From contig CM119372.1 of assembly GCA_051294905.1 (NCBI GenBank), forward strand, positions 33,606,001-33,670,000: 64,000 bases of DNA. The letters run 5' to 3'. The notes beneath the pieces are model-generated. The model had not been told where the DNA came from and did no database searches. It was given only the letters and a program-made list of their open reading frames with translations. This DNA is from Botryllus schlosseri (taxonomy: Eukaryota). Numbering within the stretch: position 1 is the stretch's first letter; the number at the start of each line of letters is the position of its first letter. The translations under genes were made by a program, and so were the position numbers. Below are positions 26,527-58,446 of this stretch, in pieces.

Positions 26527-27531
26527 CTAATTAATACTGAGTGTATTACTATCGAGGGTGACGGTTTCCCACATTTTCTGCCGAGTAAATTCCGCCAATC
26601 CGTGGACAGCGATTGTAAGAGGGAACTTGATTCCCACTCGACTGCCATCAAAAAAGAAATCGTGATCCAACGCCTGGGCGGCGGTGATGCGATCTCGATC
26701 ATCGTAAGTCAGCAGTTTAATCGCCAAGTCCTTTGCCTGTGACGACAGGACTCGCCAACCCTCCGAAACGAAAGACGGATCCTTACCCGTGGCAAAGTAG
26801 TGAGGATGTGAACCAGTCAGCAGATTGTACACGATGCAGCCGCTTGCGAATACGTCGACACCACAGTGGTATCCGTGCACAAAAGTTGTTTCCGGAGCTC
26901 TGTAGCCCACCGTGCCGACGGATCCGTAACAACCGTCACCGTGCTTTGCTTCAACCGCTGAACTAAAGCCAAGGAGCTTCACAGATTCACCACGATACGT
27001 TCTGGCGAGGAATAAATTCGGAGGAATCACGTTTTTGTGGATGATTTTCTTATCGTGACAGTATCGAAGTGCGTTGAAGATATCACGCATGTACCACGTC
27101 ACATGCATTTCGCAGTGCGATCTATCTTATTGGCCGATAACGGACTTGAAGAGTTCTTCTCCTACCATCTTTTCAAATACTTGGAAATGTATGGCTTGTT
27201 CGTGATAACTTCTGCAGAAATACACTATATTTGGATGACCGCGCAGTTTATCCAATATCTTCTCTTCCCTATCGAAGTTCCACTTCAGGTTTTCGGGCAT
27301 ACCCATTCGGAACATCGCCAAGTCTTTTTTGAACCTCAACTTCACGGCAAATTCACCCGGTTCCGGTTCATCATCTTCATTACAGTACGACTTCACAATT
27401 GAAAATTCGCCTTTAGCAATCACAGTCAACTTATCACGGAGGTCCTTGGTTATTGAACGGGGTAGACGGGCATTCTTGGAGCGGTCGACACCACGCAGGA
27501 TATCCACGATCGCGAATGGCGAAATAAACAT
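26527..27531 (-). pseudogene. CASK/CaMKII-like pseudokinase paralogue with one in-frame stop
   Basis: ORFs 27127-27537 and 26527-27108 are in the same frame, separated only by TAA at 27129-27127 (VIGQ*DRSHCE versus VTGKYGGSHCE in the paralogue). Motifs IAKGEFS, FAVK, HKNVIPPN, LGFS, YRAPE, DVFASG. Confidence 0.88.
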
Positions 27532-28318
27532 AGTCAAATGAAATGTAGACAGAACAGACCTTCAGCAATATGAATGACCTGTTGTTGGATTCGGAGCAGC
27601 CTACACGCCGTCTCGGAGTCTCGCAGTCATCGCCGATAATTACCTTCACATGAGACGACGAATTACCAGACTGATTGATATGCGCACGGGCAAGACATCA
27701 GCTCAGTCCCGTTCGTCCGTTGGATTATAGAAAATGATCATATCACATGCAGTTGCTTGGACTGTATCAGTCTCGAAATATTGTCATTTTTCTCAGTACC
27801 TTGAACAGTTTTGAAAGATGTCATCAAATGATCGATTGATCAGTATCAGAAGTCTGCGAAACCCGGACCTAGCTCGGCAAGCTACTTACACGAAACATTT
27901 TGACACCCTTCACTTACATGGATCATTCAGGCACCTACAGTTGTTTTCAGATGTCTTGAAAGCAGCTACCTACACGCATACAGCGCCATAATATACAACA
28001 TTACTTTTCTCTTTTATTGAGTGATATATCAGTCCTGAAGAGTCGGTTCAGTCCATACCAGCGACTTCAAACATGATCAATATACGGACTTCAACCCTGA
28101 CTCAGACCACGGAAACGTCAAAAACACGGACCCCGGACTCCAGCTCCGGCTGCAAAAATTTTATTTGTATCTCCATTATTCCTACAAATTACCTCAGAAA
28201 ACTACATGTCACATTCACAATCAATCACATGTACTCAAATTAGTGAGCATTTCTACTCAACCGGACGTAGAAATAACGTCGTAAACTAAATTTGAATAGT
28301 ATATTCCTTTCGAAATGA

Positions 28319-28352
28319 GCCCGAATATTTTCGGCTGACACTCGTCAGGGGT
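28319..28352 (-). ncRNA. Minimal type I hammerhead ribozyme motif in Penelope pLTR
   Basis: Minus strand reads ACCC-CUGACGA-GUGUCAGCC-GAAA-AUAU-UC-GGGC: intact core, palindromic stem III (AAUAUU), short stem I, directly downstream of the GIY-YIG ORF. Confidence 0.7.
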
Positions 28353-33705: not shown

Positions 33706-33879
33706 TTATATGGTTTATTATAGTCGAATGGTCCTCGAGCGCGATTAAAGCTCGAAATGTTTCCAATACCAAAGTCCCGAAAAGACCGACTGGACTTTGA
33801 CCTCTTACCAGGACCGAAACTGCTGCAACCCTAACCCCCAATCGGTGAGCTAAGGCAAAGGGTGCGTTAAATTAATTCG

Positions 33880-37104: not shown

Positions 37105-37140
37105 ATCCCTTGATGAGTGTCAGCCGACAAGCTTCGGGAA
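37105..37140 (+). ncRNA. Degenerate hammerhead motif in an inverted Penelope pLTR
   Basis: ATCCC-TTGATGA-GTGTCAGCC-GACA-AGCT-TC-GGGAA: same stem II as 28319-28352 but with two core substitutions, so probably inactive. Confidence 0.55.
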
Positions 37141-37469: not shown

Positions 37470-38050
37470 GATCTTACGTCTAAGCGCTTGCAGCAAAGAA
37501 TTCGCCAGCATATCCCACGGCAGATTAGAATAAGTAATGTTTCTACAACTCCATCATCGCAGTCTGTTGACACACTGCGTGATTATGATCAAGTTACTGC
37601 TTGTAATTCGGCTATTGGACAGCATCTGTTATCCCATCCTGCTGGTGCTAATCATTACAATGACATTTGCTCGTGGCCGATCTCTTTTTCATTTGAAGGT
37701 CCTGGAATCTACGATCATTAGGCTGCGAAAGCCGATTCTCTGTCGCCAGAAGGAACGCCTCTACAGTGTACACTCGTGGAATATTTCATTAATGTTGTGT
37801 GCTGTGTTCTCGGTTATTTATAACCGAATATGTGCTCGTTAACGTTTGTTTTGTATCGTTACTACCGTATCTTGCCCGTCTACTAGCTGTTTGTTTTTGT
37901 TGTTATTACGTCATAGACACAAAATAGTTCTTGCATTTCGAATTTGATCCACCCTATCACTGACGTTCGCTACTGATGAGGGTCAGTCGAAAAGCTTTTA
38001 GCGAATACAGTAACAATATGAAGTTATTGTTTCGCGTAATTTCACTATCG
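37470..38050 (+). mobile_element. Second Penelope-like element, 3' fragment (GIY-YIG end plus pLTR)
   Basis: TSKRLQQRIRQHIP...SAIGQHLLSHP...ARGRSLFHLKVLESTIIRLRKPILCRQKE, followed by a hammerhead motif. Confidence 0.8.
37966..38005 (+). ncRNA. Minimal type I hammerhead ribozyme motif
   Basis: TTCGCTA-CTGATGA-GGGTCAGTC-GAAA-AGCT-TT-TAGCGAA: perfect 7-bp stem I, intact CUGAUGA/GAAA core, palindromic stem III AAAGCUUU. Confidence 0.75.
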
Positions 38051-38203
38051 ATTAATTGATCAGAGGTAGCATACATAGGGCTGCATACTGTATTCACCAA
38101 CTAGCGTAGGGTACAGCGTACGTCTGTTTATTTTCCAGTTTAACTGGCAAGAAGGTAACGAACAGTTGCATATCTCAAAAGTTCGTTGGCACAAGGTATA
38201 TAC

Positions 38204-38629
38204 CAGAGATGAGCATGGATTAGGATTAGGTTTTGAAAAAACAGGATTTGTGAAATTTTGTCGGATTAGGATTGGATTTGGATTAGACATTTTTTTCAGA
38301 ACGGATTAGGATTTGGATTGGATTTACCTATTTTCTGGGAGATTGAAATGTCGTGTGGCGAATGGCGAATAACTTTATTCAGATCAGTTATTAATGTAAT
38401 TATGGTTACTAAGTTATCTTGAATCATGTGAATCGTTGGTTGTGAAAGAAAATTTTCGAGTCCCTTCATTGCATAAATTAGTATTTTTCTGAATTTCCTG
38501 TTGGAATCGGATTAGGATTGGACATGGACTTGAATATGAAAAAGTTATGGATTAGGATTTGGATTTGAATTTGAAGGTTCGGATTTGGATTGGATTAGGA
38601 CATAGAAATTTCAAATCCGCTCATCTCTG
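38204..38629. mobile_element. hAT MITE with GGATTA/GGATTT arrays
   Basis: TIR CAGAGATGAGC / GCTCATCTCTG; TSD GTATATAC. Confidence 0.9.
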
Positions 38630-38789
38630 GTATATACCGTACATATATATATGGATATAATCAGATCTGTCCACCGACATCTTTTTACTGCCCGAAAACC
38701 GACATCATATAATGAGCGAACTGAAAAATTACAACCTAACAATTGCATCAATCTTTCGGTACTGCAACTTCTATAAATGGGACAGTGGT

Positions 38790-39800
38790 TTAACATGATT
38801 CTTTCACGGCATCGTCCATAGATGCGCCGGCGTGCTGCGAGCCTCTTGGTGGCGATGGCATTACGCTGGCCATGATCGGTGCTAATACTGAATTAGTAAC
38901 TATCCCGACTCCCCCAGCCGTTTTCCACATTTTCTTTTGAGTGAATTCGGTCAGATGCACTATAGCGTCGCCAAGATACTGGCTCTCTTCCCGCATGGGA
39001 TTGAAAAACGAATGATTCAGCGCTTCTGCGGCGGTGATGCGACTGTCTTGATCTTCATTCAAAAGCTGCTTTATCAAGTCCTTCGCAGACTCCGAAACGC
39101 GACCCCAATAAAGTGAAGGGAAGGAAGCACCAGACGGGTGTGTTCCGCTGAGCAAATTGTAAAGTACGCACCCACACGCCCATAAGTCGATTGGCGTGCC
39201 GTACTTGAGACCTTGGATCATCTCCGGCGCTTTATATTTACGCGTACCGAGGTCTCCGAGTTTTCGCCTCGCTTTGCCCTTTGTGTCGACCGCCAAACCG
39301 AAGTCCACTAGCTTCACAACTTCTCTTTTGTCTTCGATAGTCAACGATAGATTGGGAGGCTTCACGTCACGGTGTATGATATTTTTAGTGTGGCAGTATT
39401 GTAGTCCGGTGAATATGTCTCTCATATAACGCATCACGTTGCTTTCGCAATGAGAAGCACGCTGTCTGTCGATGACATACTGGTAGAGATCGCCACCATT
39501 CAACAGCTCGAATACCAGTCGATAATCCTTCGCGCCCGAGAAGCTGCCGTAGAACTTCACAATGTTACGATGGTCAAGTTTCTTGATAATATCCTTCTCT
39601 TCGGACAATATCTCGATTTCCGGCCGCTGCATACCTTCTTTACTGATGATCTTAACGGCGTATTCTCTCGCCGATTCTCTATGAATGCATTTCTTAACTA
39701 TAGCGCAGGCCCCAGTGCCAAGAACTTCTTCCTCTTCGTACAAGTCATCGAACCTCAACCTTCTGCTAGGGCACACGCAGGCACCACACAAAAAGTCCAT
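38790..39800 (-). CDS. Intronless stand-alone CASK/CaMKII-like Ser/Thr kinase with canonical catalytic motifs (336 aa from ATG 39800)
   Basis: LGTGACAIV, YAVK, alphaC Glu, HRDVKPPN, DFG, KAPE, DLWACG, SESAKDL..RITAAEALNH, then a regulatory-like segment YLGDAIVHLTEFTQKKMWKTA. The ORF track starts at an upstream GTG (39806). Confidence 0.92.
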   Translation of the reverse strand: MDFLCGACVCPSRRLRFDDLYEEEEVLGTGACAIVKKCIHRESAREYAVKIISKEGMQRPEIEILSEEKDIIKKLDHRNIVKFYGSFSGAKDYRLVFELLNGGDLYQYVIDRQRASHCESNVMRYMRDIFTGLQYCHTKNIIHRDVKPPNLSLTIEDKREVVKLVDFGLAVDTKGKARRKLGDLGTRKYKAPEMIQGLKYGTPIDLWACGCVLYNLLSGTHPSGASFPSLYWGRVSESAKDLIKQLLNEDQDSRITAAEALNHSFFNPMREESQYLGDAIVHLTEFTQKKMWKTAGGVGIVTNSVLAPIMASVMPSPPRGSQHAGASMDDAVKESC

Positions 39801-40191
39801 CTTCACTGCAAACCGTACTGGTGAGACTGCTCAAACAGTGTCCCCGAAACAAAAGCTCTTTTTCTGATGAACAACGGCAATATTAAGCTTCGCGCTGACA
39901 AGCGGCTATCTGTAATAAACATTGCTTGCATTGTAATTTCACAGGCGACACGTTTAGTACGATTGTTTCATAATTACTCTTCCGCACCGCAGAGCCCCAA
40001 CTCAGACTTCTTGAGCGGTTGACTTTAAAAAAGCTTTAGCAAGTACAGTATGGTTTAAGAGTAAGACGGTATACTATATCGGTTTTATACAGCCATAGTC
40101 GCTTATTTTGTTTCAGCGAATCTGAGAATCACAACCAACTTCTATAGTCAATGGGCAGCGATTAGAAAAGGGCAAAATATATTATGTAACT

Positions 40192-43100
40192 CAGAGGCGG
40201 GCAACTTCTCCAGTCGGCGGGTCGGCGGGCCGGCTGGCCGGATTGCTGAATCTATACATTATTCGCCCATTTATCCACGTATACAAGGAATAAATCGTAT
40301 TTTATGAATGTATTTTAACGACAGCAATGCAACTTCAAAGCAATTTCTCGCCGATAATGACGAAGACAATGTGGATTTGAGAACAGCATTGTCATACAGC
40401 AGGGGCGGCCAAACCTTTTTGTCAGTCACGGCCGCATTTCGACTACTCATGTCGCCTACGGCCGCATTCCAGGGCATAGTCGTAATGAACAGGACGCCAA
40501 ATACTCATGTTAAAGTGTCTCTGTCCATTTCCGGTGATCTCCGTACCAGACATGGGGTAATCGCGATTAGTAATCGTAATCGATTACGACGATTACAGCA
40601 TTTTCAAGTAATCGTAATCGCAATCGATTACAATCGAAAAAATCCCGAAGTAATCGTAATCGTAATCGACTACTTCCCATATTTAATCGATTTATGTGTG
40701 AAAGAACGATTACTTTTTATTTGTACCAGGACTGTGACATAAACTGAACACTCGTGAACAAGGAAGAGATATTATACCAGTTATTGATAGCATAAACGTC
40801 TGATTCTCAAATGCCACTGCTCATTATTACGTCAGAGGTAGCCTATTAGCTTTGCTCGTCTCTGCGTAGGAAGTGTCCACACATAGTAAATAGATATTCA
40901 ATGTACATTAGTGTGATTGTAAGAAAACCCACCGTGCTGTATATCGGTTCATAAATACATTTCAGACGCCACTACCTCGCATCAGGATAATTAATCATAA
41001 TCACCTCTCTGCCTAAGTTAAAATAGCAACTTTTGTATTGATGTTTGGTTATGCTTCGTTAAACTATAGAATATAATAATTCGAGTTCTAGAGTTAAATG
41101 CAGTTTCACCGTTGCTGCTTGGCGAGCAGTAGGCCTATATGGCGCGAACGTACAGCAGACAAAGGATTTTGTACTCGCCAAATAAAACACTACGGTTTCC
41201 ACAACGAAGCATTAAAATCAGCAGCTGCTGATATATATTATAACTGGGCTGTTGTTTTGCCGTTTTTCGTAATGGCAGCTTGCATTGCATTATCTGCATA
41301 AGTTGAAGGCAGAATTTTATGTTCACTTTCTGTTATTCTCTTATTATTCTGCTCAAAATGGGCGCCAATCGCTAATTCACGAATCTTGACTGAACATTTG
41401 GACTTGCCGCCATAGCCATCGGCTTATAACATGTTAGCGTGGGTTGTAGCTAGAATCAGGATCAAAACAGCAAAAGCGTCCCCCAACCAAACTTTGGTCT
41501 TGGGCCTCCGTAGGGTAGTCAATTGTGAAGTTGAAGATTTAATTTCGTCAATATTATTGGTAATTGCATAATATTGCATTTTTAATCCGATCTCAGCGCC
41601 CCATGGTCAGATTTACCTGAAGAGCGGGGGGACGGGAGGGGGGGCGTAATTCATAATTATAACATCTGGTATCTTGCAATAATTACTTTATTGTATGTTG
41701 TTAATTCGTGACCTCCGGTCTGTTATATAGCCAAAAGATATTGATTGTAGTGGCCGAAACAGCAGACTAAAAGAAAAACTTGCGTGAGACGCACACACAA
41801 ATTGTCATGTCTAATGCTCTGTGGGTGCTCGGGTGGCATTTGCATCGTGGGCTCAGATTGGAAGGAATGGACTGTTAGTCACGCCCACCCAGCGCGGCTA
41901 TTAACAATGGACACATACCCTAAGTTTTGGCCAATGTCTTTCTTTAATAGCACACTTCGTGGAGTCTCATGTTGGCCGAAACTCCATATGTCTTTTGATG
42001 TGTCGAGGAGCGGTATTGACTGGCACCTAAATGCCTATTACTATGAAATATGCATGCTTTATTTCTTGGGGGGGGAAGGGGGGACGTATGCATTTCGAAA
42101 TCAAGCACTCTAGAGACATTTAAATCGCAAGGCTCAAAGAGAAATTCCAAGTTAATGACATCTCACGAAAATACTCTATAATTTATGTTGGTTTGCAAAA
42201 TACTTTTGAGTCCCCTCCAACCACGCTCCCCGCCCCGGCAGGCCAATTATTATTAGTCACTTTGTTGCATGCTGTTCTTTGCATGTCTTGACCTCCCGTC
42301 AGGATTGTCGGTATGCTGAGGAGCACACGATTCCGAGTTGGTATTTCTATATGAGGCGCATCTGTTCGCAATTGTACTGTGGGGCTCTGATTGCCAAGTG
42401 CGCAACTATGTTAAAATCGAAAAATGAAGTCGCGTTGAATTGCGCGCTACGCGAAGAAAATTTCAAGAATAAATAAGATCTTTCAATAAATCTGGAGTCA
42501 ATTCGTAAATTCAAATTCCATGTCGACGGCCGTCAACACCTACTAATTGAATTACGCGTCCACGGCCGCACGAAATTGCTTCTACGCCCGCAGGTTGGCC
42601 ACCCCTGTCATACAGGTACCACCATGTCTGCTTCTCTCTGATCAATCAACACACGGTGCAATCCTTCATTAAGATTTCAAGGCATTCATTAAGCCCGGTA
42701 CCCCCAATTTACCAAGATATCAATGCATTAATTAGGGTTTGGTAGGTGACGAGATAGCGTGGTTGCTAAACTATGTGGCCTGTTTATCTCGATACTGAAT
42801 TCATGCGGGCCACGGCCTCGAAATTTGAAATTGGCCCGCGACCCGTTTTCAGTTGGCGACACCTGGCACAAGCGGTGTGTTACAAAAGCCTAGAAGTGTG
42901 CGCCGTGCTACAAGTCGACGGTTACGGAATCAAAAATAGGAAATATCGGCTTGGTGTAAATGACCATTGTCGTCGACAAACACCATGATTACCACAAATT
43001 ACATTAGGGTTCAGTACATCGTAAATGCCGATGCTGCAAGTCTTCTCGCTTCGACTAACTTACGCGTAAGCTCCATACTCGCTCGCTGCGCATACTTGTA

Positions 43101-43254
43101 TATAATGACGTACAGTCACTAAAATTTGATGTATGTAAGCAATTAGGGGGAATCTCGGAAGACTGAAGCCGGCGGGCCGCAATATCATGTAAGACGAAAA
43201 ACTCTCCGCGGGCCGGACAAATTCCCTTCGCGGGCCGTATGTTGCCCGCCCCTG
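40192..43254. mobile_element. hAT element with nested insertions, ~390 bp upstream of the kinase ATG
   Basis: TIR CAGAGGCGGGCAAC / GTTGCCCGCCCCTG; TSD ATGTAACT. Confidence 0.88.
40400..42607. mobile_element. hAT MITE (family of 2743-3543), itself interrupted
   Basis: TIR CAGGGGCGGCCAA / TTGGCCACCCCTG; TSD TCATACAG. An internal element end with a GTAATC array lies at ~40547-40690. Confidence 0.88.
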
Positions 43255-43373
43255 ATGTAACTGAATCAATTCCGAATCTAACACTAGGCTTAAAGTCGAG
43301 AAGTCGATTGCCACACATTATGACGTCATACATAATAAGAATAAATAACTAAGTTTTAGTTTGTACCTTAGAC

Positions 43374-45498
43374 CAGTGCTCTTCAACCGGGGTTTTCGTA
43401 CACCCTGGGGTGTACCAAAATTTTAAAAGGGTGTACCACTCACATGGGGTGTACAGGGGTGTACCAGATCCGAATTAAACTTGACCGATGACTATATAGC
43501 TATCACAATAAACAGGCAGTGGTATGCTTCAGAAATTCAATATGTTGACCGGGCGTGCATCATCGTAAAATATGTTCATATCAGCTGTACGAGCTTGTAA
43601 GCTATATTCCTTTTGGTGTATCATAAGCATATGTTTGTGCACATCACTTGAATGTTGGTATGGACTTTTTGATTCCTTTTGGAGTAGAAAAGAATGGAGA
43701 TGACACGTGTTTCGCTTGCAATATCCATCTATAATGATGCTTGACGAAACCACTGCGACGGTTCAGAAATATTGAATTTGTACTTTCTGTGAGCTCCTTA
43801 TAAATAGCGCAGTGTACATCATTACAGGGGCGTAGCCAGGTTGTCTCGAAGGGGTCTAGTTTGAGAACCACTGTGCTAGCTGGTGGTCCGGATCCTCGAG
43901 CCCTGATTAGTATTTAGCATTTCAAATACGTTACAGCATTGTTCATCCTTATTTCAACAGGCCAGCACCTGCAGACATACGGTCGCATGCAGCCGTTAAA
44001 CAATATTTATGCAAAACATATTAATTAAATTAGAGCGTGTTTCGGGGTCCGTTATTATGAAATTTGAATTAACGAATAGGTTCTCAAATCTTTTAGTGAT
44101 TTTAAACTTGAAAATTTTATTCACGCTTGCGCTATTCAGAGGAGCAGGATTTTTCGTATTTTATATATAGTGTAATCTGAGTCCCACCGAACAAATGCAA
44201 ACCGTAAAGGAAAATGATGCACCCCATAAAGAAATACCAAGACGGATTCGTATGCGTGTATGCCTACAACCCCTCCATCTGCTCCATCGCTCAATCAATC
44301 ACGTGTGCCAAGAATGGATAAATAGTTGACAGTAATATATGAAACTACCCATATTATAGACGAAATAAATATTCCGCATGTAAAAGTTTTTAGCGCCCGC
44401 GCGACTACTGTTACGATTAAAAACTTCTATACGCAATGTATACCTCAAGAAATCAGTGATGGCGCAGAACACCACAAGCGCTCTCCGCGGTATCAAGTTG
44501 CCAGTAGCCAATTTAACATGAGTAATGAGTATATGCGGGGCCGAAACAGCTCTTCGTCAGCCCCCCCCCCGCCTAAACAAACGTTGGTCTTGGGCCCCCA
44601 TAGCGTCGTGACATAAACCAAACAGTAGACCCCTCATCACGGTCTACTTTTTATAACCGCTATTTTGTTATACACGTTAGTGGGCTAGTTTATACCGTAA
44701 GATCGCGTGAGGCGTAAAATTTTCTATCATTCGTGGGTGAATCCGTCAATAATATCAGAAATTGCATACATATTGTTATAAATTATGTTATTCTCTCACT
44801 CTGCCCAGGTAATCAGATTTACTTTGAGATTTACAATCAAAATGAAATGTTTTGGAAAATGTAGAGCCCGTAAATAAAAATAATTCGGGAGGGCCCCTTG
44901 GTCCCCTCGGGGTTTTCAGTCAGCACGAGGCGGTCCTTTTTGACCAATGTTTTCTCGCTGCAGATCATTCTGCCACACTTCTAGGATTGCATTTTGTTAC
45001 ATGGCCTAAAACTTCATATGTCTTGCAGCCTCGTGGCGCGGTAATGGCCGACACCGAAATGCCCATTGCTATTAATCTCGCATATTTTTTCTTGGGGAAG
45101 GCTACCCAATAATGAAGAAATTTGACATTAAATTGAGCGTAGGGCGAAAAAAATTGAATGAAGTTGAACAAATTTTTAAAAATATACTCGATAATTTATG
45201 TTTATTCAAGAAATAATTTTGGGACCCCTTCGAGCTCGCCCCCCCAATCGACGGGTTTCGGGTGCGGCAGTTAGAGTCCTGATGATATGACGACCAGATG
45301 AGCCATTCCGACTCTACGCCGGAATGCGGTATAGTATGCTATGTAAGAAATCGAAGCACGGCCGTGAATAACAAGGAGGTTGAACACCCCTAGTCTAGGC
45401 TTACTATACGGAATCAATGAGTTATCCGGTCAGGGGTGTACCAGTTTCAAGTAAACCTCAAAAGGGTGTACCACGATGAAAAAGGTTGAAGAGCACTG
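43374..45498. mobile_element. hAT (Charlie-like) element with GGGTGTACC motifs
   Basis: Perfect TIR CAGTGCTCTTCAACC / GGTTGAAGAGCACTG; TSD CCTTAGAC. Confidence 0.9.
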
Positions 45499-47761
45499 CC
45501 TTAGACAGTCTGAATGAAAATATCGACAGTTACACTCACTCAAATCAGTATGGCAATATCTATTCATTATTTAGCCTCATGCTGCATGTCTTGTCTACTG
45601 TTATGACTTGAGTATAGGTGTCATAGTTTCGACAGTGGGATGAAAGTGTCGAAATGATAATTCCTGTCTATTAAATAGTTCTTCATCACACATTTTGGCA
45701 GTAGAAAAAAAATTCCGCTCTTCGACCAGAATTACTGCAATCTATAATCATCTCGATTTCGATAACTCGGATCGTTTTGGCTAGCCTAGATCAGAGCCAA
45801 AGAAATTACTTTCCATAGTGATGACGCACGCTAAATTCTTCGGATCTAACCCTGCTATGATTCGCATCTCCAACCGAACAAACAAGAGCGACGTCTAATT
45901 TCAGACGCCTTGTCGTGATTATTTCTTTTCGATTTGTAGGCCTACTGCTATCCCAGACATCGATATAGAGTCGATGACAATGTATTGACGTGCTGTGCAC
46001 AGTAATAAACAGGGAAGGGGAGCTTTTCATCCGTCTAATTGGTGTAATTCCTCAAATAGCCTTTCAATAATAATTGACTGTTCCCACGCACTACATCCAT
46101 ACTCGTATCGTGGTAAATATACGGAAAAGTAAATTAGGATTACAATTCTGCGAATGAAATCATGACAGCTCTTACCGAAATTGCGATGTGATTTGAGGTA
46201 TGATTTATTTCAATTCAACTGGGATTTATATGTGTTGTATGGAATTTCAAGCTTAGCGTATGAATTAGTTTGGGAGACTCGCCTTTCTGCCATTGCCGAT
46301 TGCCGGAACCGGTCATACACTGCAGAAACCTTGTATATATTAACTTGGCAAAGTCCGTTCCCTATCTGCGCATGCATTTTTGTCAGATAATTCATTTTCC
46401 ATACAATTATAAATTAGGAAGGAGTTGGGATAGCAGTCAATCGAAGGTCATTACTGTACAATGGCGGGTATTCCTCACATTTCCTGACAACAGAAGTACC
46501 AATATAACAGTGCGAGAGATTGAGAAGGGCCATTGAGGTTTCTTGAGAAGGTCGTATGGTTCAGTGGCGGCTCGTAACAATATCGGGTGGTGGGACAAGG
46601 GCTTCGAGCGACTTTTATCAACATGACGTCACAGTGGCGTTTTCCAACGTCAAAAAGTAACTTTATGATGGTCACATGAATTTTCCGACAACTATTTGCT
46701 AGGGATTCAATTACATACAAGTAAGGTATTTTAATGACTGAGTATTGTGATGGCATTCACTTTAGCGAACGACAACGGAAAAATTTCCGATTTCTTTGTC
46801 GGTGTATGTGTTACACAGCTAATTCTAGTACACCTAACTATAGGACACATTTGGTAAACATCGTACAAAGTGTTTCTTTGTGATGGTAACGACTTTCAGC
46901 GGCTCGGTTTCATGTCGGGAATTATTATTCGGGGGTTCAAGAACAGTTTCAATCAATACTACAAATGAACAACAATGCGAAACACGTTTAGCGAATTGCA
47001 GTGTAGCAAGTACTTCCTTGATATTACGAGTGTTGTGCACTAGACACTTTTAGTTGAATTGGATGCGTCTAGCAAACATATCCCAATTTACTTTTGTAAT
47101 GATCAAAGTCTTGGAGTGTAACCTCGCGATATTTTACATTTAGCACGTTCCATAGGAAGTGTGAACGGAGTTGAGTATTAATCGTGTACTTGGGATAGTG
47201 CTTTGATATCAAAGAGATATCTTCACACTGTGTAATGTTTTCAATTATCTGTTTCGAATTCCGACAGTAACCACATTGATGTTAAATCCTCACTCTCGGT
47301 CATTGTAAGTGTATCCTAAACATCGCAACAGTCGGTATGGAAATCGAACGCATGCATACTTTTAGATAGGCGACACTAACAAGTTTATTACATCCATGAA
47401 ATACTCAGAAACGTCGATTCGTGATTGTGTCAGCTTGATTCATCCTCTATACCCGTGGACACAAAGATATCTTAACTTTGGTTACAACTCATTCGAAACG
47501 AATTGTCGCGTGCAATCTAAAAAAGCCCAAGTCGACGAGGAATGATTTGATTTTAATCAACTAAAAAGTTCTTTTGTTTTGATGTTGGATTTAATACAAT
47601 TTGTATGACTATAACGAATCCGATTCCAAAAGTGAAATGTTACTTTAAACATAAGTTTGACGACTTGCAGTCTGATATTGATAGATGTGTAGAGTAATAT
47701 GACTAGTTTATAAAATCTCGGTAATGTTTCTTGTCATGTCTGTGTTATCATCAAACAAATA

Positions 47762-48723
47762 GGGGAGATGTGGTACCGATGGATCACTGGGACCGAAGAT
47801 ACTTTAAAAATTCTCCATGATAATTCCATGATTACACTCCGTGAATTTTTCTACAAGTACATGCTGACAGAATCTTTTCTCACATGCAAAAAAATTCTAC
47901 CTGCATGAGTTATGGGGTCTGTGACGAATGATTTACGTTTTAGGGGGTGTAAAGTAAATTTGGATCGACATTTGCATTTTTCTATATCACCTTTCAGACT
48001 AATAAACCCGCTATAATTTTTGATGTGAAGTATAGGGCTTGTATCAGGGTATATAATGGCACATATTTTTTGAATCAATACCACCCTCGAGTGGACTATT
48101 TTCAAGTCAATTACAATATCTATGGGGTGGGGGACCTATGGTACCATAGCCAAATCAAGCAAAATAGATGGACCAACTAATCACTCAGCAACAGAAACGC
48201 GCCTGCATATATATAGGCTGTAAATCATAGTTACATGCGGTGTTTTATCGCTATTACGAGGTATTTGAAAGTCAAAATGTCGATTTGCGGGTAATATGTA
48301 TGTAGCATTAATTTTATAAGTTTAGGCGTAAATCAAAACATGATTTTTTGCCAACATTTGAGTTGATATAATCTATTTCATTCTTGAAGGTCGCGACGAA
48401 ACATTCTTCATTGACTTACTGTAGCTTAGCTTACAGTACACAACAAAACAAGTCAACAAATTTGAGTTTTTGAGCGTATGTCTCATAGGTCCCGTGGTCG
48501 TGTGCCTTTGGACCCACCGGGTGGGGACCGATGACACGTTCGAGCAACAAATTTTAAACGTTTATAATTATTTTTTGAAAAGGCGGATATTCATGTAAAT
48601 GTCCGCGATAGGTAGAGCTTGTATCGAAGTGTTGAGACAGCAAAAGATCTGCTATTCTCGGCTGAAGATTTGAGGGCCAGAGATCATTTTGTAATTTTTG
48701 ATCCATCGGTACCACAGCTCCCC
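47762..48723. mobile_element. TA-targeting (Tc1/mariner/pogo-type) MITE
   Basis: 25-bp TIR GGGGAGATGTGGTACCGATGGATCA (1 mismatch), flanked by TA on both sides. Confidence 0.85.
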
Positions 48724-51649
48724 TATGTGATTTGTTTCAAGTCTTACGATTAGATGTTATCTTTCGCGGTTGTAATAAAACGAAAGTTCTTTTAGAATAC
48801 TTACGAGTTCAATAATATTCTCTATCGACGAATGTTCCTGTGTCTTGCTGAATTTAGCTCTGTGTGGGTAAATTGATAGTAATTCAATTATAACTCAAAT
48901 TCATATTAACCGAAAAATACCTTTCGGTGATTTGGATTTTGTGATAATATTTGGTTCCAATACTGCGAATGAACAGTGATACAAAACACCAGATTACCAG
49001 ATTGGCCAGATTACGGTGTACAATTCCGATGTCTTTGATATTCCGAATTCAACATATAAACCAATAAGTGTACCAAACTAGTTTAAGCCTTGAAACCACA
49101 TGTCGAAGGTGAACGATTTGTTTTATTCAAATAAAAAAATACTTTGCTTCGGTGTCGCAGAAATGTAATTTGTATGAATTACATACACAACAATGAATCT
49201 ATTTCTACAATTTGGAATGCCACTTTTACCAGAATGTCTGTCGACTTGTATTCTAATATTCACAGACGGGTTAATCAAGATGAACGGTTTATAAAATCGC
49301 GGCGGTGTTTTTTGTTATACGACTGTTATCATCAAACAAATTTGTTTGTTTCAAGTCTTACGATTAGGCATTATCTTTCGTAGTTGAAATAAAACGAAAG
49401 TTTGTTGTTATGAGTTCAATAATATTCTCTATCGATGAATGCGAATGATACGACAGCTTGATACAGTTTTGTGGTTAACTCAAGTCAGGGATCATGTTTG
49501 CGTTGATTTCGAGAATGAACATGACGGGGTAGCAGATAATTTAGTTAATGTGGTAATAACCATGTCGTAAAGAGTTGCTGACATTAAAATATATTTTACG
49601 GTGTAATGTACGGATTCACTTGTGGTAATTTAATTCTCAGTCCCTGATCGGACGAGTATTCAAATATCGTATACTCAAAATATAATTTGTTTATGTCAAG
49701 TCGGGTATGCACCGATTAGTAAATACTTTGTCTTACAGAATAGTGATGAGATTTACAGTTGAATAAAAAGATCGGTCATATGTGTACAGTCAGGATGAAT
49801 TATTCAAGTTTGCAAGTTGTAGTGATATAATCAAGTAAGTCAAAATCGGATTTATGACTTGTGAATGTTGTTTGTGAAGTCCTTTGAGTGTGGTAAGATA
49901 TTGAAACGTCGGGATGTACTAGCGCTTTCATTTCCCTAAACTCAGTTGCAACAAAAAACAATTATAGACCAATGATAAAGTTGTAAGTTTCAACGTTCTG
50001 TTTCAAATCATTGTGTGAATAATCCGACAAACACGCATTCAACATTCTTAATATTATTGATATAAGACATTACCATGTTTACTGACTTTGAATAATATTA
50101 TCCTGATGTCAAGGCGGTAGATTAACATATTCCGATACAATTCAGCTTCACTTGTAGCGCGAGTGAGATTTCGAGTTGGTAAATTAACACATTGATTGAA
50201 TATTATCATGATTCTTATGACGCAACTAAAGTCAATCCTATTCTAGAAGCGTGAAAACTTATAGCGACTGTGTGGAAATCGAAAACGGAGCTGAAAGTTG
50301 GTCAAGTCAAGTAATATTCAGTTTCAAAAAGATTAAACTCCTAAAAAGATTAGAGTTATACCGACAATTGACAATTTGTTGGTATTCAAGTTACCCATGC
50401 TGGAGGTTCTTTTATTCGTTACATATTAAATCTTACCAGCGAAATCAAGTTCTGTGACAAAATGATTACTAAAATTTCACCGCGTGAGCGATCGGTATGG
50501 CTGTAACACCAAGTCACTAAAGATGGTTATGTCCGAGACATTATCTTGTCAGCGATCGCGGGATTTGCAATCTATTTTACACTTTTGTGAAGTGTTAATT
50601 TGCGAGCGCGGTTATTGTTGGTTTTCGAACACCGTCTATGCCGGCTCTGTGACCAATTAATTACCAAAATATTAACATGCGAGTAATTCCTAGATTTAGC
50701 AAACTATTTCACACCATTTTGCTGTAGGGCTTGACCGAACTACTGTACAATATACTGTAGCGGCACAAAACATCCAACCAGCTGTTCAACGGGAAACAAT
50801 TCAGGATGTGAGAGGGCAGGATGCCAGAGTCATTTGTCGCACGGAATATAGGTCGCGCTCGAAAACATGTTTTCAAAATCCACTTGCGATGAAATGCACA
50901 ACGCGCCGCGTTTCTGAATTTCCTGTGTCTGCTTATTGATTATATTTTGCGAAACGATATAGGCCGATTTTAACGTGTCACACAGGTCAAAATGCAGCGT
51001 TTGCGACTTCCGAAATGCACTTTTCTGACTTCCGCTAGGCTAGGGTTGCCATACGTCCGGAATTACCCGGACATGTCCGGAATTTCACTGAAAAATTTGC
51101 GTCCGGGAGGAATTTCTAAAATATGCCTAAATGTCCGGAATTTTGAAGGCTTGAAGCAGGCTCAAAAGTTTTTCGTAAATCAACATAAACAATATTTTTT
51201 TCAAGCAGATTTATGCTATTCAAAATTGTTCTTCACGCCACGCGCGAGCTTGTAACGTATAAGGATATTATTATGGGCTTCAGGCACCACCCTCGCAAAA
51301 AAATGCAATCAAAATAAATATAAATAACCATCATTTACTGAAATAAGTCTGATTGTAATCGCTATATAAGCTAATAAGCTAACGGTATATTCCTAGAGTT
51401 GGTTAAGGCTGATTGGATGCTTCAATCACATACAGTTGCTCCAAATCTTGGGGTCGTCCGCCTTTATCTGGAGATCGCGATGATGTTGAACGTAATCAGC
51501 TTCCTATGCCGTGTGCAAGTTTGGGCAAGCTGAATTTTTTTAGTAATCTGCTTATCAAGTTTTGAGCTTTGCCACGGAACATTTTCTAGTGGGAAATGAG
51601 GTCGCGAGCATAAAAGGTTGGAAATCACCGGATTTGCAACCAGCTAGTA

Positions 51650-51968
51650 CAGTGGTTCTCAACCTTTTTTTGACGCGCCGCCCTTTTTAATAGTGAAAAA
51701 TTTCGCGCCCCCCCTTATCGTCATATCACAAAATCTAACTGGGATGCTAGCAACCCCAACAGATTGTTTGGTGGTATGGTCGCGGTCGGTTATGAATGTT
51801 GATGAGAGAATAAAAAATATGAAATTGCGTCTATATAGAGAAACACGCCTGCATTGAAGGCAAATCGCGCAAAGCACGAAAAATTTTTTCAGGTGACCGC
51901 TTCTTCGCGCCCCCTTCAGATGTTTCACGCCCCCCAAGGGGGGCGCGCCCCCAGGTTGAGAACCCCTG
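51650..51968. mobile_element. hAT MITE nested in 51041-54068
   Basis: TIR CAGTGGTTCTCAACC / GGTTGAGAACCCCTG; TSD AGCTAGTA / TGCTAGTG (2 mismatches). Relative at ~23222. Confidence 0.75.
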
Positions 51969-52158
51969 TGCTAGTGCATTTTATAGTAGGCTAATATATC
52001 GAAGAATCAATATTATTGACAGAATTCATACATAAAATATAACAGTCAAATGCAAATAGTAAGTGCCCACCAAGTTACATCGACTACCCTATGGTGGCCC
52101 AAGATCAGTGCTTTTTGGGCGGAAGGGGGGGAGGGGAGAAAAAAATGTTGTTTCGGAC

Positions 52159-53715
52159 CAGAGTTGGATCAATTACATTATTTCAGTTCAATTACAATTA
52201 CAATTACAATTACTTTCATGCATGTTTCAATTACATTACAATTACAATTACTCCATGCTAAAAATATCAAATTACAATTACAATTACAATTACTCCTTGC
52301 ATGCTTCAATTACATTACAATTACAATTACAATTACTGCTGTTGAATATGTAATTGAATAATCATAAATTCAACCGTGCTCCTTGACAACCGTAGCGTCG
52401 TATTTAACAACAATTCAAGTCTAGTTCAGATTGTGTAGTAATAAATGCGTTTATGTGCGTACATAGTATGCTATGTAAGATGTCATCGTGACGTAAGACG
52501 TAATATAAGCGTGTTTTGTATGCTCGGTAATTATGGTTCACGTAATTGGAAATGTAAAATGTTATTTACCTAATTTCCTATGGGTTAGGATTAACGATAG
52601 GGTGCAGTATGTCGTTGAAAAAGTATTATAATATATGCACGTGTTGGATTTGCGTATATAGTATATAATTAAAGAAATAATATTATTTTCATCGAGAGAC
52701 GTAGGAATTAGGATGAGGAGTAAAAAAAAACCGTGAATTGTCAGATAAGACGTTATATAATATCCAGTGGTCTGGTTAGTTAGCCAAACGAAGTAACGAT
52801 GCAGCATCGTGATCTGAAATCGTATTGTAGATTGCCAACCCACGGATAGATGCGCAGGATGTGAGTCACGGATGAATGCACCGACAAACGTACTGCAGAG
52901 CCGGCTAAAAGCAGCAAACTTTGTAGTCCTAGAGCTGGCGATCCATGCGTCCAAATTTGATGCATCTGGTCTTTATCGTAAGCTATTGATGTACTAATTC
53001 CGAAAATACAAAATAAAATCTCGTCAGGGCAATGTATCTGCTCCAAAATAGCCGTTTAAGGCCGACTGTTCTGGAAAGTGAGAGCGCTGCAGCATGACCA
53101 CAACAATTACCAATTACGCCCAGCGATTGTTCAGAACAATGCCGATTCCCAGACTTTCACGACTATTTTGGGATGGTACCATTGCCTGGAAATATACTTT
53201 TATTGCGGAATCAGTGTGACACTAGCTTTTGATTAGGACCATACATATCAAATTTCGACGCTTGGATCGCCAGCTATGGGACTGTCAATTCTGCTGCTTT
53301 TAGCCGGCTCAGCAGTCCGCTTCTCGCTTCTCTGAGTCACGTGTTGCGAATCCATCCGTTGGTTAGTAATCTAAAAATTGTATACAATGGCAGCCGAGGC
53401 CAGCATAGCGGTAAAAAAAAAAAACTTCGCCCGCAAGGGCGCAGTCAAGGGCTTCCGCGAATGGATCCACCAAATTCCTTGTCGACATTTGAAGAGAATG
53501 CATTATAAGTCAAATATTTTATGTTGTACTTGTCAGGTCTCAATAGCAATTCAATGTAATTGAAATGTAATTGAGCAAAATTTTTGTCAAATTACAATTA
53601 CAATTACAATTACACAAAATAAAAATGCTTCAATTACAATTAAATTACAATTACATTGAAAAATGTAATTAATTACATTCAATTACAATTACAAATTACA
53701 ATTGATCCAACTCTG
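52159..53715. mobile_element. hAT MITE with (AATTAC)n arrays
   Basis: TIR CAGAGTTGGATCAATT / AATTGATCCAACTCTG; TSD TTTCGGAC. Contains an internal inverted repeat ~52825-52985 / 53220-53375. Confidence 0.9.
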
Positions 53716-56700
53716 TTTCGGACCTGATTAAAACACATAAACAGATAGCCGCACCGACCTAACTGTATAGCAGGGCTGTCAAACACAATCCTGACAGCCC
53801 AGACACGGCCCGCCAGATGATTTCATCCGGCCCGTGGAGTCATCTATTGCTAACCCTAGCAAGAAGCAATCACCAGAGCTCACATTACATATGGCCCAAT
53901 TCATGACCTATGTTCCACTTCATTCCTGTATAGTGTATACAGTCGATGGGCAATGCTTTGCTAGTGTGACGTCATATTGACGGCCAATGTGTTACACCTC
54001 ATTTTAAAATCCGCTAGGGGGCGCTAAAGAGTGTCCGGAATTTGCTTCACAAAAATATGGCAACCCTACGCTAGGCCTATTTTCGACCACAAGGCAGCTC
54101 AAAATACAGCGTTTCTGACTCCAAAATGCGCGTTTTCTGAATTTCCGGTCGCTTGTTTATTTATTATATTCCCATATCACCAGCGGGTACTTACACTACT
54201 CATATTCGTCGGTGCAGCAAAACATGTTCACTACAGCAGTATATATCCACCTCTAAACCCAAGGACGACATCGCCTTTACCCCTCAAAGACATGTTTATA
54301 CTGTCACGAGAATAATTATTCTGGCCGTGATGAAAATTTATTAAAAAGATGCGGCAATATTGATCTATTCAATACAAAAAATAAATATTTGGCAAAGAGC
54401 CATATTTTATACCAAGAAGAGCCATATATGGCTCGCGAGCCATAGGTTCCTGACCACTGGTATAGTGGGAAGATATTGGATTTTCCAAAACGTAGGTCTA
54501 CCAGAAAAAGAAATTTCCTTCGTGATGAGGAGAACACGATTAAAAATTACTATTTATATATGGGGTGCATCATTTTCCTCTGCTGGTCCCATCTATACTG
54601 TCGGGCTCATATTGCAAAGGACACTGCTACATAAATATCGAAAAGCAACCCGCACTGAATCGCGCGCAGCGCGAAGACAATTTCAAGAATAATTCAAACC
54701 TCTCATTAATTAGGCAGCTTACTTTGAATAACAACCACAAAATGTTTGAACTGAAATCAATTTCAGCATTTCAAAATGCTTTACTAAGCGTTCTTTCAAA
54801 ATTTCAAATCAGGTCGTTGGTCGCGTGTTGCTGACCCCTGGTTTACACCGTATCCTACACAACTTCTCCGTATTGCTTTACGACTAAAGTACGGTCCTAA
54901 TAATATGGTGGAGGGTGCCATACCATGATATTTTCTGAAACGTGCTGTTCGAGAAAACAGAGGATTAGGATCGCATTTCCATGTCAAAACTATCATTTTC
55001 ATCCCATGATGCGAACGGATGCTTATGCTGTTGAAAATAGGATACCTCCAGGTATGCATCAATATAAATCAAGCTGGGCACAGTTCGCATAGCTCAATTT
55101 GAACGTTTTCACAATCCATGGGAACGAATTAGGATCGAGTAGGATGAGTCAATTCTGCTTCTACTTCAAGTAGTTTTAGGTTGCTTATCGGAGAAGTACT
55201 TCTACTCGTACTTGAGTAGATTTTTTCCTCGCTACTTCCACTTCTACTTGAGTAGTTTTCTTGACTACATTGACCCCCTCTCTGTATACTTGCTTCCGAT
55301 AATACTTTAACACGTTTAACACGTTATAACATTAACACGTTATACAGTAGCCAATACCACAATCGCACGGATTTGGTTTTTATGATACGATAAGCATGCA
55401 AAATAAAGATCGATCCCATACGCCTGTTAGATTTTTTACAGTAGACAGCGATGTATTCTTGATATCAACTTCATTGATTGGAGGAATGAGAAGGATGATT
55501 TGCTGACTGACAGGTTGTAACCAAGTTAGAAAGCTCCGAGTAGGAAAGTCAATCTTACTTGTATGGTTTTGACTCGAGTCAAGTCGAATCATTTTCAATT
55601 CACCGCCGAGTCAAGTCCGAGTCCAAGTCAGTGAGTAGAGGGTCGAGTCCGAGTCATGGTATTATGACTCGAGGCCGAGTCCAAGTCACTGTGTTGACTG
55701 CTCAGTTTCCGGTCAAAGTCTTGTTAAAACCTCTTTTTATAACTCCGTTTGTTGATATCGAATGGTTCGCATTTATAATATACTAATTTTCCTCACTTTT
55801 AGCAGTTTCTGGTCGCATTTTCAAGTACCAGTACCAATAGACGAAATCCTAATAGTATTGTTACTTCACTATTCTTCGAAGTTACAATGAAATGTCGGTC
55901 TTGGCCGCCCGAGTCTCCAGTCATATGACTTGGTTCGAGTCATACGCAATTACTCGAGTCCAAGTCGAGTCAATACACAGATTGATTCCAGTCGAGTCAT
56001 TTTCGTATTTTAAGAAAATGACTCGAGTCAAGTCGAGTCATTAGAAAATCGTGACTCGAGTCGAGTCATGACTCGAGTCATTACCACCCTGCTGAGTACC
56101 TACATGTAGCGTATTCCGCTCTTGGTGATGTGTGACTGCGGGTCATGCTCAAAGTAGAGAGTCACTAAATATTCACAAACGGAAAGGTGGATATTTCAAG
56201 CAAACTATTGTGTCAAAGCAAGGAAAATATTTGAGATTGGCAGGGTGCATGCTCGATTAGTGTTGATTTTTTTTTATATTGCCAGCATCATGCATAGTGG
56301 CCCGAAGTAGAAAAGCAAAGAATTTCAACCAATAATGTTATGATGTGAAAAATTGTAACATATGATTAAGGTTCACAGCCCTGAACCTACGAAGGTTCGT
56401 TTGTGAACGTGAGCCTCTAAATTTCCGACGTTCAGACACAGAACGCGAACGTGAACCTCATGTTCACACCGTACTAAATTCTAATTCATAGTGTAGCCAG
56501 AGTAACCTACGACTGGTGGTAGTGGGCAATTAGCAAGATAACACGACAAGGTGCTTGGTTCGACTTGAAAACGCTTGTTTTCTCGATATTATCGAAGAGA
56601 ATATTATTATTCGAATTGACGTGGTCGGTTAAATACATGGCGTTAGGCGCCAAAGACCGTAACGGCTCTCGGCTCTAAGGGCAATATTAACTAGACTCTG

Positions 56701-57447
56701 CAAACCCACTACGGTATATTCAGATGGATGTATCATGATTATATTCAATTACGATCAAACCCCTCAAAACGGCCCTCTCTAGCATTATATACTTGCATAA
56801 AACAATTGCATACTCCACGTTTTGAGTTGATTTTAATTTTTGAAAGTTCACCGGTTCGCCGAATACTTTTTGAAATTTTACCGGTCCGCGAGGTGAAAAG
56901 GTTGTGATTCACTGTGACAGACTAAAAAGTCAATCTGCTTCACGACTAGACTTCTATGTCGGTTTCACATTGGGGCGGAAATGGGCACCCACACAAAAAT
57001 CAAGAACTGCCATGACACTATTGCGCGCAAGCACGATGGAATATCCAATTTGAATAAACCTGACCAAAAAGTGCTGTACGTTACGTTAATTCACGTAATC
57101 TTCTCCGAATACAAGTTACCCATACATTACGTACGAGATTTCTTATCCCTCTCAAATATTAATACACGGACCACTCAGAACCTTCTCGTGGGTCACGTAC
57201 CTGCAACCTATTGTCTGTATATATAACTCTACATCGAATTCGTAACGACATTTCTCATTGCAGCTGCAGCCCCCGTCTTCAACCATCCTTCATATTTGAA
57301 AATCACGAACTACCTGGCAACGTCGGATGTCACATATTTATATTTCGAAGGTAAACAGATAACGAATATATTGTCTCCTGACCAAATTTCAAGCTTTTTG
57401 TGGATATTGGATAACCGAAATTTACTAACGGAATAGATTGGTTATTT

Positions 57448-58446
57448 TCAGACCTTTCCGTAGTGTTTCCTAATCCTCAGAGACTGACAAAGATACGGCC
57501 TATCATCACATGAGGCGACCCTTTCCCACAACTTGTGCTCAGTGAATTTGGTCAATTCCTCGACAGCAATTGTAAGATTGTCGTTCAGTCCCACTCGCCC
57601 GACATCATGGAAAAAAGGATGATCCAACGCCTGTGCGGCGGTAATGCGCTTATTAGGATCGAAAAACAGCATTTTCGTCACCAAGTCCCTAGCCCATCTG
57701 GATATGAGCTTCCAAGCAGGGGTGAGGGAAAATGGGCGTTCACGCGTGTTATGGATGAAAGGGTGTGATCCGGTCAGCAAATTGTAAAGGATGCAGCCGC
57801 ACGCGAATAAGTCGACTCGATAGCAGTATACATCCACCCATGTTATTTCCGGGGCTCTGTAACCCGCCGTACCAACGATTCCGTAGCAGCCCGCGTCGTG
57901 CTTTGCATATAACGCCAAGCTAAAGCCAACCAGCTTCACAGATCCACTATTAGTGAGGAACAAGTTCGGGGGTATCACGTTTCTGTGAATGATTTTCTTT
58001 TCGTGGCAGTATCGCAGTCCGTTCAAGATATCGCGCATGTATCCAACCACATCTTTTTCGCAGTGCGAACCGCCGTATTTGCCAGTAACAGATGGATATA
58101 GGTCGGCTCCATATAGCCGTTCAAACACCTGGAAATGTTGCGCTTGCTCCGTGAAACTCGTGATGAACAACACAATATTTGAATGAAGACCCAGCTTCGA
58201 TAATATTTTCTTTTCTTCAGCGAACTCCCACTTGTGTTTCTCGGCGTACTTCCATGTCTGTCTCACTGGCATTTTATGTTTTTGCCTCACTTTCACGGCA
58301 TATGCATTTGCGCTGCCTTTACAAAGGTATACTTTCACAAACGACCATGTGCCTCTACCAATCACCTCGAACGAGTCCCTGTAGAAATCGGTAATAGCCT
58401 CCGGGCGTTCGTCGGAATTCCGCGAACAGCCTGCCCCGCAAATCAT
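57448..58446 (-). CDS. Intronless CASK/CaMKII-like pseudokinase (332 aa)
   Basis: Full kinase fold (IGRGTWS, YAVK, VFERLYGADL, YRAPE, DLFACG, RITAAQALDHPFF), but the catalytic loop is HRNVIPPN and DFG is replaced by GFS. ORF uninterrupted. Confidence 0.9.
   Translation of the reverse strand: MICGAGCSRNSDERPEAITDFYRDSFEVIGRGTWSFVKVYLCKGSANAYAVKVRQKHKMPVRQTWKYAEKHKWEFAEEKKILSKLGLHSNIVLFITSFTEQAQHFQVFERLYGADLYPSVTGKYGGSHCEKDVVGYMRDILNGLRYCHEKKIIHRNVIPPNLFLTNSGSVKLVGFSLALYAKHDAGCYGIVGTAGYRAPEITWVDVYCYRVDLFACGCILYNLLTGSHPFIHNTRERPFSLTPAWKLISRWARDLVTKMLFFDPNKRITAAQALDHPFFHDVGRVGLNDNLTIAVEELTKFTEHKLWERVASCDDRPYLCQSLRIRKHYGKV

Follow-up and report, generated by a model that had tools for sequence, protein, structure and literature searches.

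What remains of a kinase of the CaMKII/CASK branch when it occurs as a single exon without the domains that make its relatives what they are, and is it still a gene? CaMKII's defining behaviour rests on an oligomer held together by its hub, and that of CASK on its scaffold domains. The question is raised by a stretch of 64,000 nucleotides of the Botryllus schlosseri genome (contig CM119372.1, here C2, positions 33,606,001-33,670,000), which we call the window and in which positions are counted from the first letter. It carries three kinase-like genes, all on the minus strand. An earlier reading made from the letters alone, the sequence-only reading, took them for a retro-copied CASK kinase domain that had expanded into a small kinase/pseudokinase family. 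We searched the window and the genome to which it belongs (495.5 Mb, 219 contigs), and on balance we favour another answer: a lineage-restricted, single-exon family of the CaMKII/CASK branch, built of a kinase domain and a diverged autoregulatory helix, with neither hub nor MAGUK part. The three genes are as follows.

26527-27531, minus strand: copy 1 (locus L007), a pseudokinase-type member with an interrupted frame
27127-27129, minus strand: in-frame TAA at codon 135 of copy 1, where the near-twin locus L019 reads Tyr
38790-39800, minus strand: copy 2 (locus L001), an intact single-exon kinase of 336 residues, with a Pfam Pkinase match and kinase motifs
57448-58446, minus strand: copy 3 (locus L006), an intact single-exon pseudokinase of 332 residues, with a Pfam Pkinase match and motifs

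The whole kinase domain can be read without any intron in each of the three copies, and all of them bear a Pkinase domain (PF00069; E 4.5e-61 in copy 2 and 1.5e-45 in copy 3). Each open reading frame (ORF) starts with an ATG shortly past an upstream stop and ends shortly past the regulatory helix. Pfam detects no MAGUK or hub domain in the three kinase ORFs or in the 124 other window ORFs of at least 75 residues. The common orientation, the single exon and the shared motifs SHCE..V..YMRDI, PPNL, GC..YNLL.G.HP and L.[EK]FT..K.W had all been recognised in the sequence-only reading and are borne out here. That reading missed the TAA of copy 1: 335 codons separate the ATG at 27531 from the stop at 26527, much as it had supposed for every gene, but the frame is broken (context GGC CAA TAA GAT) and its longest open piece has 199 codons.

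Residue calls from a 36-sequence alignment set the copies apart. In copy 2 the catalytic set is complete (K50, E68, H143-R144-D145, N150 and D166-F167-G168, in invariant or near-invariant columns), and the loops read HRDVKPPN and DFG. Copies 1 and 3 retain both the beta-3 Lys and the Glu of helix C, and their catalytic loops read HKNVIPPN and HRNVIPPN, respectively, with GFS for DFG. Having thus lost the HRD Asp (to Asn in copy 3), the loop Lys (to Ile) and the DFG Asp, they are pseudokinases by sequence. Copy 3 also carries an insert of 8 residues ahead of helix C. Two features run through the family: relative to CaMKII, 9-15 residues are missing at the alpha-G position in all members (for copy 2 a 14+1-residue gap in the HMMER alignment with Drosophila CaMKII), and 2 residues are inserted in the loop after helix D, where CASK has 4 and CaMKII none. 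AlphaFold models of copies 2 and 3 (predicted local distance difference test, pLDDT, 84.0 and 84.3; predicted template modelling score of copy 3, 0.85) show a kinase fold followed by a C-terminal helix. Between helices F and H the model of copy 2 has only a four-residue turn (229-232), and that of copy 3 has no normal alpha-G. The closest structural matches are autoinhibited CaMKII and, after it, CASK; among PDB sequences CaMKII is again the best match of copy 2 (182 bits), and CASK reaches 174 bits in an alignment that spans the regulatory segment. By its motifs copy 2 looks catalytically competent. The earlier description of one active-looking enzyme beside two pseudokinases thus agrees with the motifs, with the provisos that one pseudokinase frame is broken and that 'active-looking' is qualified by the loss of alpha-G.

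The helix that follows the kinase domain aligns with the autoregulatory segment of CaMKII and CASK. It is LTEFTQKKMWKTAGGVGIV in copy 2, a derived version occupying residues 277-297 of the AlphaFold model, and LTKFTEHKLWERVAS in copy 3, and the proteins end 20-40 residues beyond it. Where CaMKII and CASK read L.KFNARRKLKGA, the family has the tail motif L[TI]EFT.[QK]K.W[KE]T. At the other end, Cys-Gly stands within the first five residues of all five intact family ORFs of the genome (MDFLCGACVC in copy 2, MICGAGCS in copy 3, and MDFSCGAFVC, MAICGT and MLCGAGCS in the others). In PMC9371321, CaMKv is described as a hub-less pseudokinase of the CaMK family with HRD Asp changed to Asn and palmitoylated on Cys5. 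By analogy, the N-terminal cysteines of the family could be palmitoylated too, and copy 2 is possibly anchored to the membrane by them.

What had been read as a cluster of three is part of a larger set. When the genome was searched in six frames with copy 2, at least 78 matches reached E <= 1e-10, and trees assign 10 loci to the family; as 120 of 328 candidates were scored, this means at least 10. Seven of the ten, all on the minus strand, lie within about 207 kb (C2:33,480,518-33,687,194), and a search with copy 3 as the query brought no further members. The search for paralogues which had been proposed thus succeeded, and the clustering, together with the subclades, bears out the idea of a kinase/pseudokinase family expanded by local duplication. 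Five loci are intact: copy 2, L002 (95% identical to copy 2), L003, L004 and copy 3. The others are copy 1 with its in-frame TAA, the 5'-truncated L008, L019 with a frameshift located after WYMR, L010 (C2:33518180-33519053; frameshifted and with a stop) and L025 (C3:23259518-23261455; frameshifted). Copy 2, L002 and L003 make up a catalytically equipped subclade, and copies 1 and 3, L004, L008 and L019 a pseudokinase subclade.

L010 and L025 constitute a third subclade with HRDLQPPN and DFG, which, judging by its frames, appears dead in the host genome. Its sole intact representative seen, P0001, comes from another public assembly: a protein of 355 residues on a Logan contig of 1555 nt, which has the family tail and shares a C-terminal motif with L010 and L025.

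Among 1.84 billion representatives, no protein other than P0001 exceeds 50% identity; copies 2 and 3 themselves are not in the 15-billion-protein collection, and the protein atlas places the family in generic CAMK clusters only. None of the 53 proteins scanned from the top 150 representative matches, mostly multi-kinase proteins, has a MAGUK domain, and our full-text literature searches brought up no description of such a kinase family. We see in it a lineage-specific expansion of an ordinary sort, in which some structural traits are unusual.

Are its members alive? They might be decaying processed pseudogenes in a repeat-rich region, the cluster being dead as a whole and its frames open by chance. 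Such a view is encouraged by the lesions in copy 1, L019, L010 and L025 and the truncation of L008, by the young high-copy repeats between the genes, by a small element inserted in the 3' flank of copy 2 and by the RNA data considered below. Selection speaks otherwise. The ratio of non-synonymous to synonymous rates (dN/dS), which had been named as a check, comes out significantly lower than 1 for each pair compared: 0.23 for copy 2 against L002 (21 synonymous and 18 non-synonymous differences over 219 and 789 sites; Fisher p 7.3e-6), 0.48 for copy 3 against L004 (dS 0.58; p 1.1e-6), 0.48 for L004 against L008 (p 0.012), 0.48 for the C-terminal part of copy 3 against copy 1 (p 9e-5), and 0.32 and 0.39 for the first and second halves of copy 1 against L019 (p 0.033 and 0.046). 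The frames of copy 3 and L004 have both stayed open, at 332-342 codons, despite a dS of about 0.58, and the intact P0001 shows a relative preserved in another assembly. Copy 2 and L002 can moreover be compared beyond their coding sequence (CDS), over the following stretch.

38631-40191, minus strand: DNA homology between copy 2 and L002, made up of the CDS, about 360 nt of 5' flank and about 160 nt of 3' flank

Here the CDS is 96.1% identical, and the flanks are less well conserved (88.4% over the 360 nt of the 5' flank and 89.9% over the 160 nt of the 3' flank). Copy 1 and L019 are 96.5% identical over 3.5 kb, with flanks as alike as the coding parts, and their lesions are different, a TAA in one and a frameshift in the other; recent and independent loss therefore fits the pair, and for copy 1 a null allele or an assembly error would fit as well. 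We conclude that copy 2 probably functions as a protein-coding gene, that copy 3 is a conserved non-catalytic relative, which may act as a scaffold or competitor, and that copy 1 is a recently disabled copy. Death of the whole cluster we consider improbable.

Expression gives less comfort. Four bulk RNA runs bearing the same species label, from each of which 1.1-1.9 billion letters (6-13%) were sampled, were mapped on 38500-58490. In all four, depth is zero over 39167-39833, that is, over most of the CDS of copy 2. Copy 3 is covered at a depth of about 2-4 in a single run (X8), so that the RNA-seq check that had been suggested yields something for copy 3 and nothing for most of copy 2. Between 91 and 97% of mapped reads fitted in part only, which points to repeats. 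A depth of 1-4 does occur over 38500-39166, with A>G at 38568 in every read; as this position falls within the inserted element, the reads are probably transcripts of other copies of that element. An index of RNA runs listed no holder of copy 2, which is a blank only. Neither splice joints touching the kinase ORFs nor informative transcript ends were found in the four runs, where coverage is low. Expression is thus weak at best, for copy 3, in the sampled runs, and a restricted expression of the family is possible.

The descent of the family is the second matter. In bilaterian CASK, GFG stands for DFG and the catalytic loop contains His-Cys (HRD.KPHC). The sequence-only reading derived the genes from a CASK kinase domain freed of its MAGUK part, with the DFG-bearing copy as a reactivated or ancestral-state CASK enzyme, and there is a good deal in the sequences to invite it: YMR.I...L.YCH, IIHRDVKP and SESAKDL are shared with CASK, Gly replaces the DFG Asp in copies 1 and 3, the insert after helix D sits in the same loop as that of CASK, and the bit score of the PDB alignment to CASK, which runs through the regulatory segment, comes close to that of CaMKII. 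The rows of our trees comprised the family, other CAMK ORFs of the same genome, 16 named CASK proteins, 16 that are CaMKII or carry a hub, unnamed hits and, as outgroups, a DCLK3-like protein, DAPK1, a fungal CaMKI and an EF-hand kinase. For the resident CASK and CaMKII, exon pieces found by tblastn were joined into approximate rows, without the first exon and insertions. A quick tree of 84 rows was supported by the Shimodaira-Hasegawa-like approximate likelihood ratio test (SH-aLRT), and a careful maximum-likelihood tree was built from 50 rows; the 34 rows dropped for it were the long-branch loci L013, L018, L020, L021, L022, L024 and L026, L008, which is partial, CASK and CaMKII rows that were redundant, and a few unnamed proteins.

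In the quick tree the family (10 loci and P0001) has an SH-aLRT of 99 and CASK of 100, and the family falls on the CaMKII side with 92. In the 50-row tree the family is a clade at 100/100, and so is CASK (10 rows, the resident CASK among them), with the family left outside. The family joins L005, L009, L012, L014, P0002 and P0310 at 93/91, and this wider intronless group joins canonical CaMKII at 89/87, the family itself standing outside the canonical CaMKII clade. The phylogeny that had been asked for therefore returns the single family clade, placed outside CASK and beside CaMKII-like genes. Approximately unbiased (AU) tests on the same tree disfavour a union of the family with all CASK (lnL cost 27.0, p-AU 0.044) and reject one with the resident CASK only (72.0, p-AU 0.0004) or with the resident CaMKII only (39.3, p-AU 9e-5); joining all of the intronless group to CASK costs 8.0 lnL and is not rejected (p-AU 0.137), which leaves room for a deep CASK-side position of that group. 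Since both unions with resident genes are rejected, the family is not a recent offshoot of either, and neither is its sole sister.

Single residues were compared as well. Of 36 columns that distinguish CASK from CaMKII, copy 2 has the CASK residue in 5 and the CaMKII residue in 11; for the outgroups the CASK figure is 7 (DCLK3), 6 (CaMKI) and 4 (DAPK1), and the CaMKII figure is 11-12. Judged by these columns copy 2 has no CASK signal above background. Copy 3 is CASK-like at 9 and CaMKII-like at 7. It should be noted that the outgroups share the 'CaMKII-type' states, and the count therefore cannot show CaMKII ancestry. The His-Cys signature of the CASK catalytic loop is missing from the family. 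The change of Asp to Gly, read as GFS in copies 1 and 3, is restricted to one derived subclade and is present in L009 as well; neither a reactivated nor an ancestral-state CASK enzyme need be concluded from it. Sister intronless genes, finally, bear the CaMKII hub and no MAGUK domains. The hub domain PF08332 has 6 matches in the genome, none of them on C2, and matches lie in or beside the kinase ORFs of L012, L014 and L024. We consider descent from CASK unsupported and unlikely. An origin deep on the CaMKII side is favoured, not proven, and by kinase-domain sequence the wider intronless group could lie deep on the side of CaMKII or of CASK.

The hub-bearing loci deserve a description of their own. 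L012 (C6:1316384-1317826) is an intact single-exon ORF with kinase and hub, 548 residues long from its first ATG; L014/L033 (C6:4155637-4157059) is a single-exon CaMKII-like gene with a hub; and L024/L031 (C16:970439-971689) is a hub-bearing single-exon gene too, with the pseudokinase motifs HRV and HLD. The three loci point to a broader radiation, within this genome, of CaMKII derivatives without introns; if the wider intronless group is real, their hubs speak for its descent from CaMKII.

The resident genes are built differently. CASK, on contig C14, is multi-exon, with at least 8 exons in the kinase region and the motifs GGFGIA and PHC; CaMKII, on contig C16, has at least 11 exons across the same region, plus a hub. 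The contrast that had been drawn between a multi-exon CASK and an intronless stand-alone domain lacking MAGUK and hub parts is therefore upheld within one genome. An intron of the resident CASK contains an unrelated kinase-like open frame with HLDLKPGN (L050-L051, ~C14:913,709-914,140). The resident CaMKII (L056) has two adjacent versions of the exon ...CIQQI...HRD[LV]K, at ~C16:6,926,035-6,926,148 and 6,926,798-6,926,890, which are candidates for tandem duplicated, mutually exclusive exons.

One could also take the ORFs for parts of larger multi-exon genes in which splicing joins them to upstream or downstream domains that escaped recognition. This is very unlikely: short exons could exist, as the scan covered ORFs of at least 75 residues and RNA coverage is too low for splice joints, but every ORF has its own ATG soon past a stop and ends past the regulatory helix, the other 124 window ORFs hold no hub or MAGUK domain, C2 has none of the genomic hub matches, no splice joint in the RNA reads touches the ORFs, and P0001 is complete at 355 residues with the same architecture.

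We thus return to the single-exon, hub-less family. Its most likely history is this: an intron-free, probably retro-copied CaMKII-like gene would have lost its hub, the hub-less gene would then have multiplied by local DNA duplication, and the copies would have split into a catalytically equipped and a pseudokinase subclade. Copy 2 would encode a kinase that is monomeric and kept in check by the regulatory helix, and control by calmodulin and an interplay between kinases and pseudokinases can be imagined. A number of points weigh against this account. No poly-A remnant or target-site duplication proving retroposition was found, though no systematic search for them was made. The 89/87 and 93/91 branches are both unstarred; the whole intronless group can be moved to CASK at the small cost given above; and the resident CaMKII by itself is rejected as a partner of the family. 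YMR.I and HRDVKP are common to the family and CASK, and their inserts (2 and 4 residues) occupy the same loop. Ala stands at the CaMKII Thr286 column in the family, and the calmodulin-binding motif is strongly altered. The absence of the alpha-G helix from copy 2 would be unusual in an active protein kinase, and most of the copy 2 CDS has no reads in the four RNA runs; half of the family loci (5/10) are broken or truncated.

Part of the local history can be read from the flanks and the neighbourhood of the genes.

26330-26387, minus strand: stretch of the copy 1 3' flank with AATAAA, similar in local alignment to the copy 3 3' flank
57305-57357, minus strand: stretch of the copy 3 3' flank matching 26330-26387 in local alignment, ~72% identity
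40545-42235: high-copy interspersed repeat, at least 27 scored copies genome-wide
43364-44400: high-copy interspersed repeat, at least 10 scored copies genome-wide
52157-53715: high-copy interspersed repeat with an internal inverted self-match, at least 39 scored copies genome-wide
59816-60457, plus strand: SWIM zinc finger ORF (Pfam)
61828-62304, plus strand: ORF with a YqaJ-like recombinase domain (Pfam)
62804-63049, minus strand: DDE_Tnp_4 transposase fragment (Pfam)

The likeness of the outer two 3' flanks, from which a local duplication had been deduced, is above chance and weak: one local alignment of about 58 nt around the poly-A signal, scoring 30 against a shuffle mean of 17.7 +/- 2.5 (reached by 1 of 300 shuffles; BLASTN E 0.038). 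Flank pairs with copy 2 as a partner do no better than chance (93 and 100 of 300 shuffles). The element in the 3' flank of copy 2, about 430 bp long (38203-38630) and absent from L002, has inverted ends AGAGATGAGC...GCTCATCTCT and is bordered by repeated GGTATATACC; past it the homology between copy 2 and L002 resumes at 38038-38202. The supposed transposon-saturated block is borne out in part: the three repeat stretches are there, with copies 87-97% identical and no Pfam-recognisable ORF, and the DDE_Tnp_4 fragment is the sole transposase match. It is one of only three Pfam matches among the 124 other ORFs, and all three, situated just past copy 3, look like mobile-element-derived genes.

What would such a family mean? 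If it works under purifying selection, it shows which parts of a CaMKII/CASK-type kinase are dispensable. A broader proposal is that an animal lineage, probably a tunicate one, possesses a selected hub-less and alpha-G-less CaMKII-like family that pairs active-type with conserved pseudokinase members, both types having an N-terminal cysteine membrane anchor and a strongly conserved remodelled helix. We put this forward as a doubtful prospect; if true, evolution would here have run an experiment on CaMKII-type signalling by monomers, with pseudokinase regulators built in, and it would also show a route by which duplication yields pseudokinases. Because we deal with a lineage-specific expansion without expression evidence, the present value lies mainly in annotation and comparative kinome work.

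Set beside known kinases, the family has a mixed character. With CASK it shares the CAMK branch, the motifs YMR.I, HRDVKP and SESAKDL and, in copies 1 and 3, the loss of the DFG Asp (the consensus across the 17 CASK rows reads GFG). Unlike CASK, it has no L27, PDZ, SH3 or guanylate-kinase domains and lies outside the 100/100 clade; copy 2 combines DFG with PPN, copies 1 and 3 GFS with PPN, and none has PHC. CaMKv, which is absent from the named top protein matches, offers an analogy as far as it is described in PMC9371321: it is hub-less, its HRD Asp is changed to Asn (copy 3 reads HRN), a calmodulin-binding segment follows its kinase-like domain, and its palmitoylated Cys5 is N-terminal, as are the cysteines of copy 3 (MICGAGCS). 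In contrast to the family, CaMKv ends in a long disordered C-terminal tail. L012, L014 and L024 are, like the family, single-exon and fast-evolving, in the same tree neighbourhood (93/91), while keeping the hub and a full-length alpha-G and having neither the family tail motif nor the 2-residue insert. From CaMKII the family differs in its single exon, in the missing hub/association domain PF08332, in Ala at Thr286 and FT.[QK]K.W[KE]T for FNARRKLKGA, in the 9-15 missing alpha-G residues and the 2 residues inserted after helix D, and in its place outside the canonical clade, with union to the resident CaMKII rejected. CaMKII is nevertheless the best PDB and structural match, shares an alignable regulatory helix past the kinase domain, and is the family's neighbour in the tree through hub-bearing intronless paralogues.

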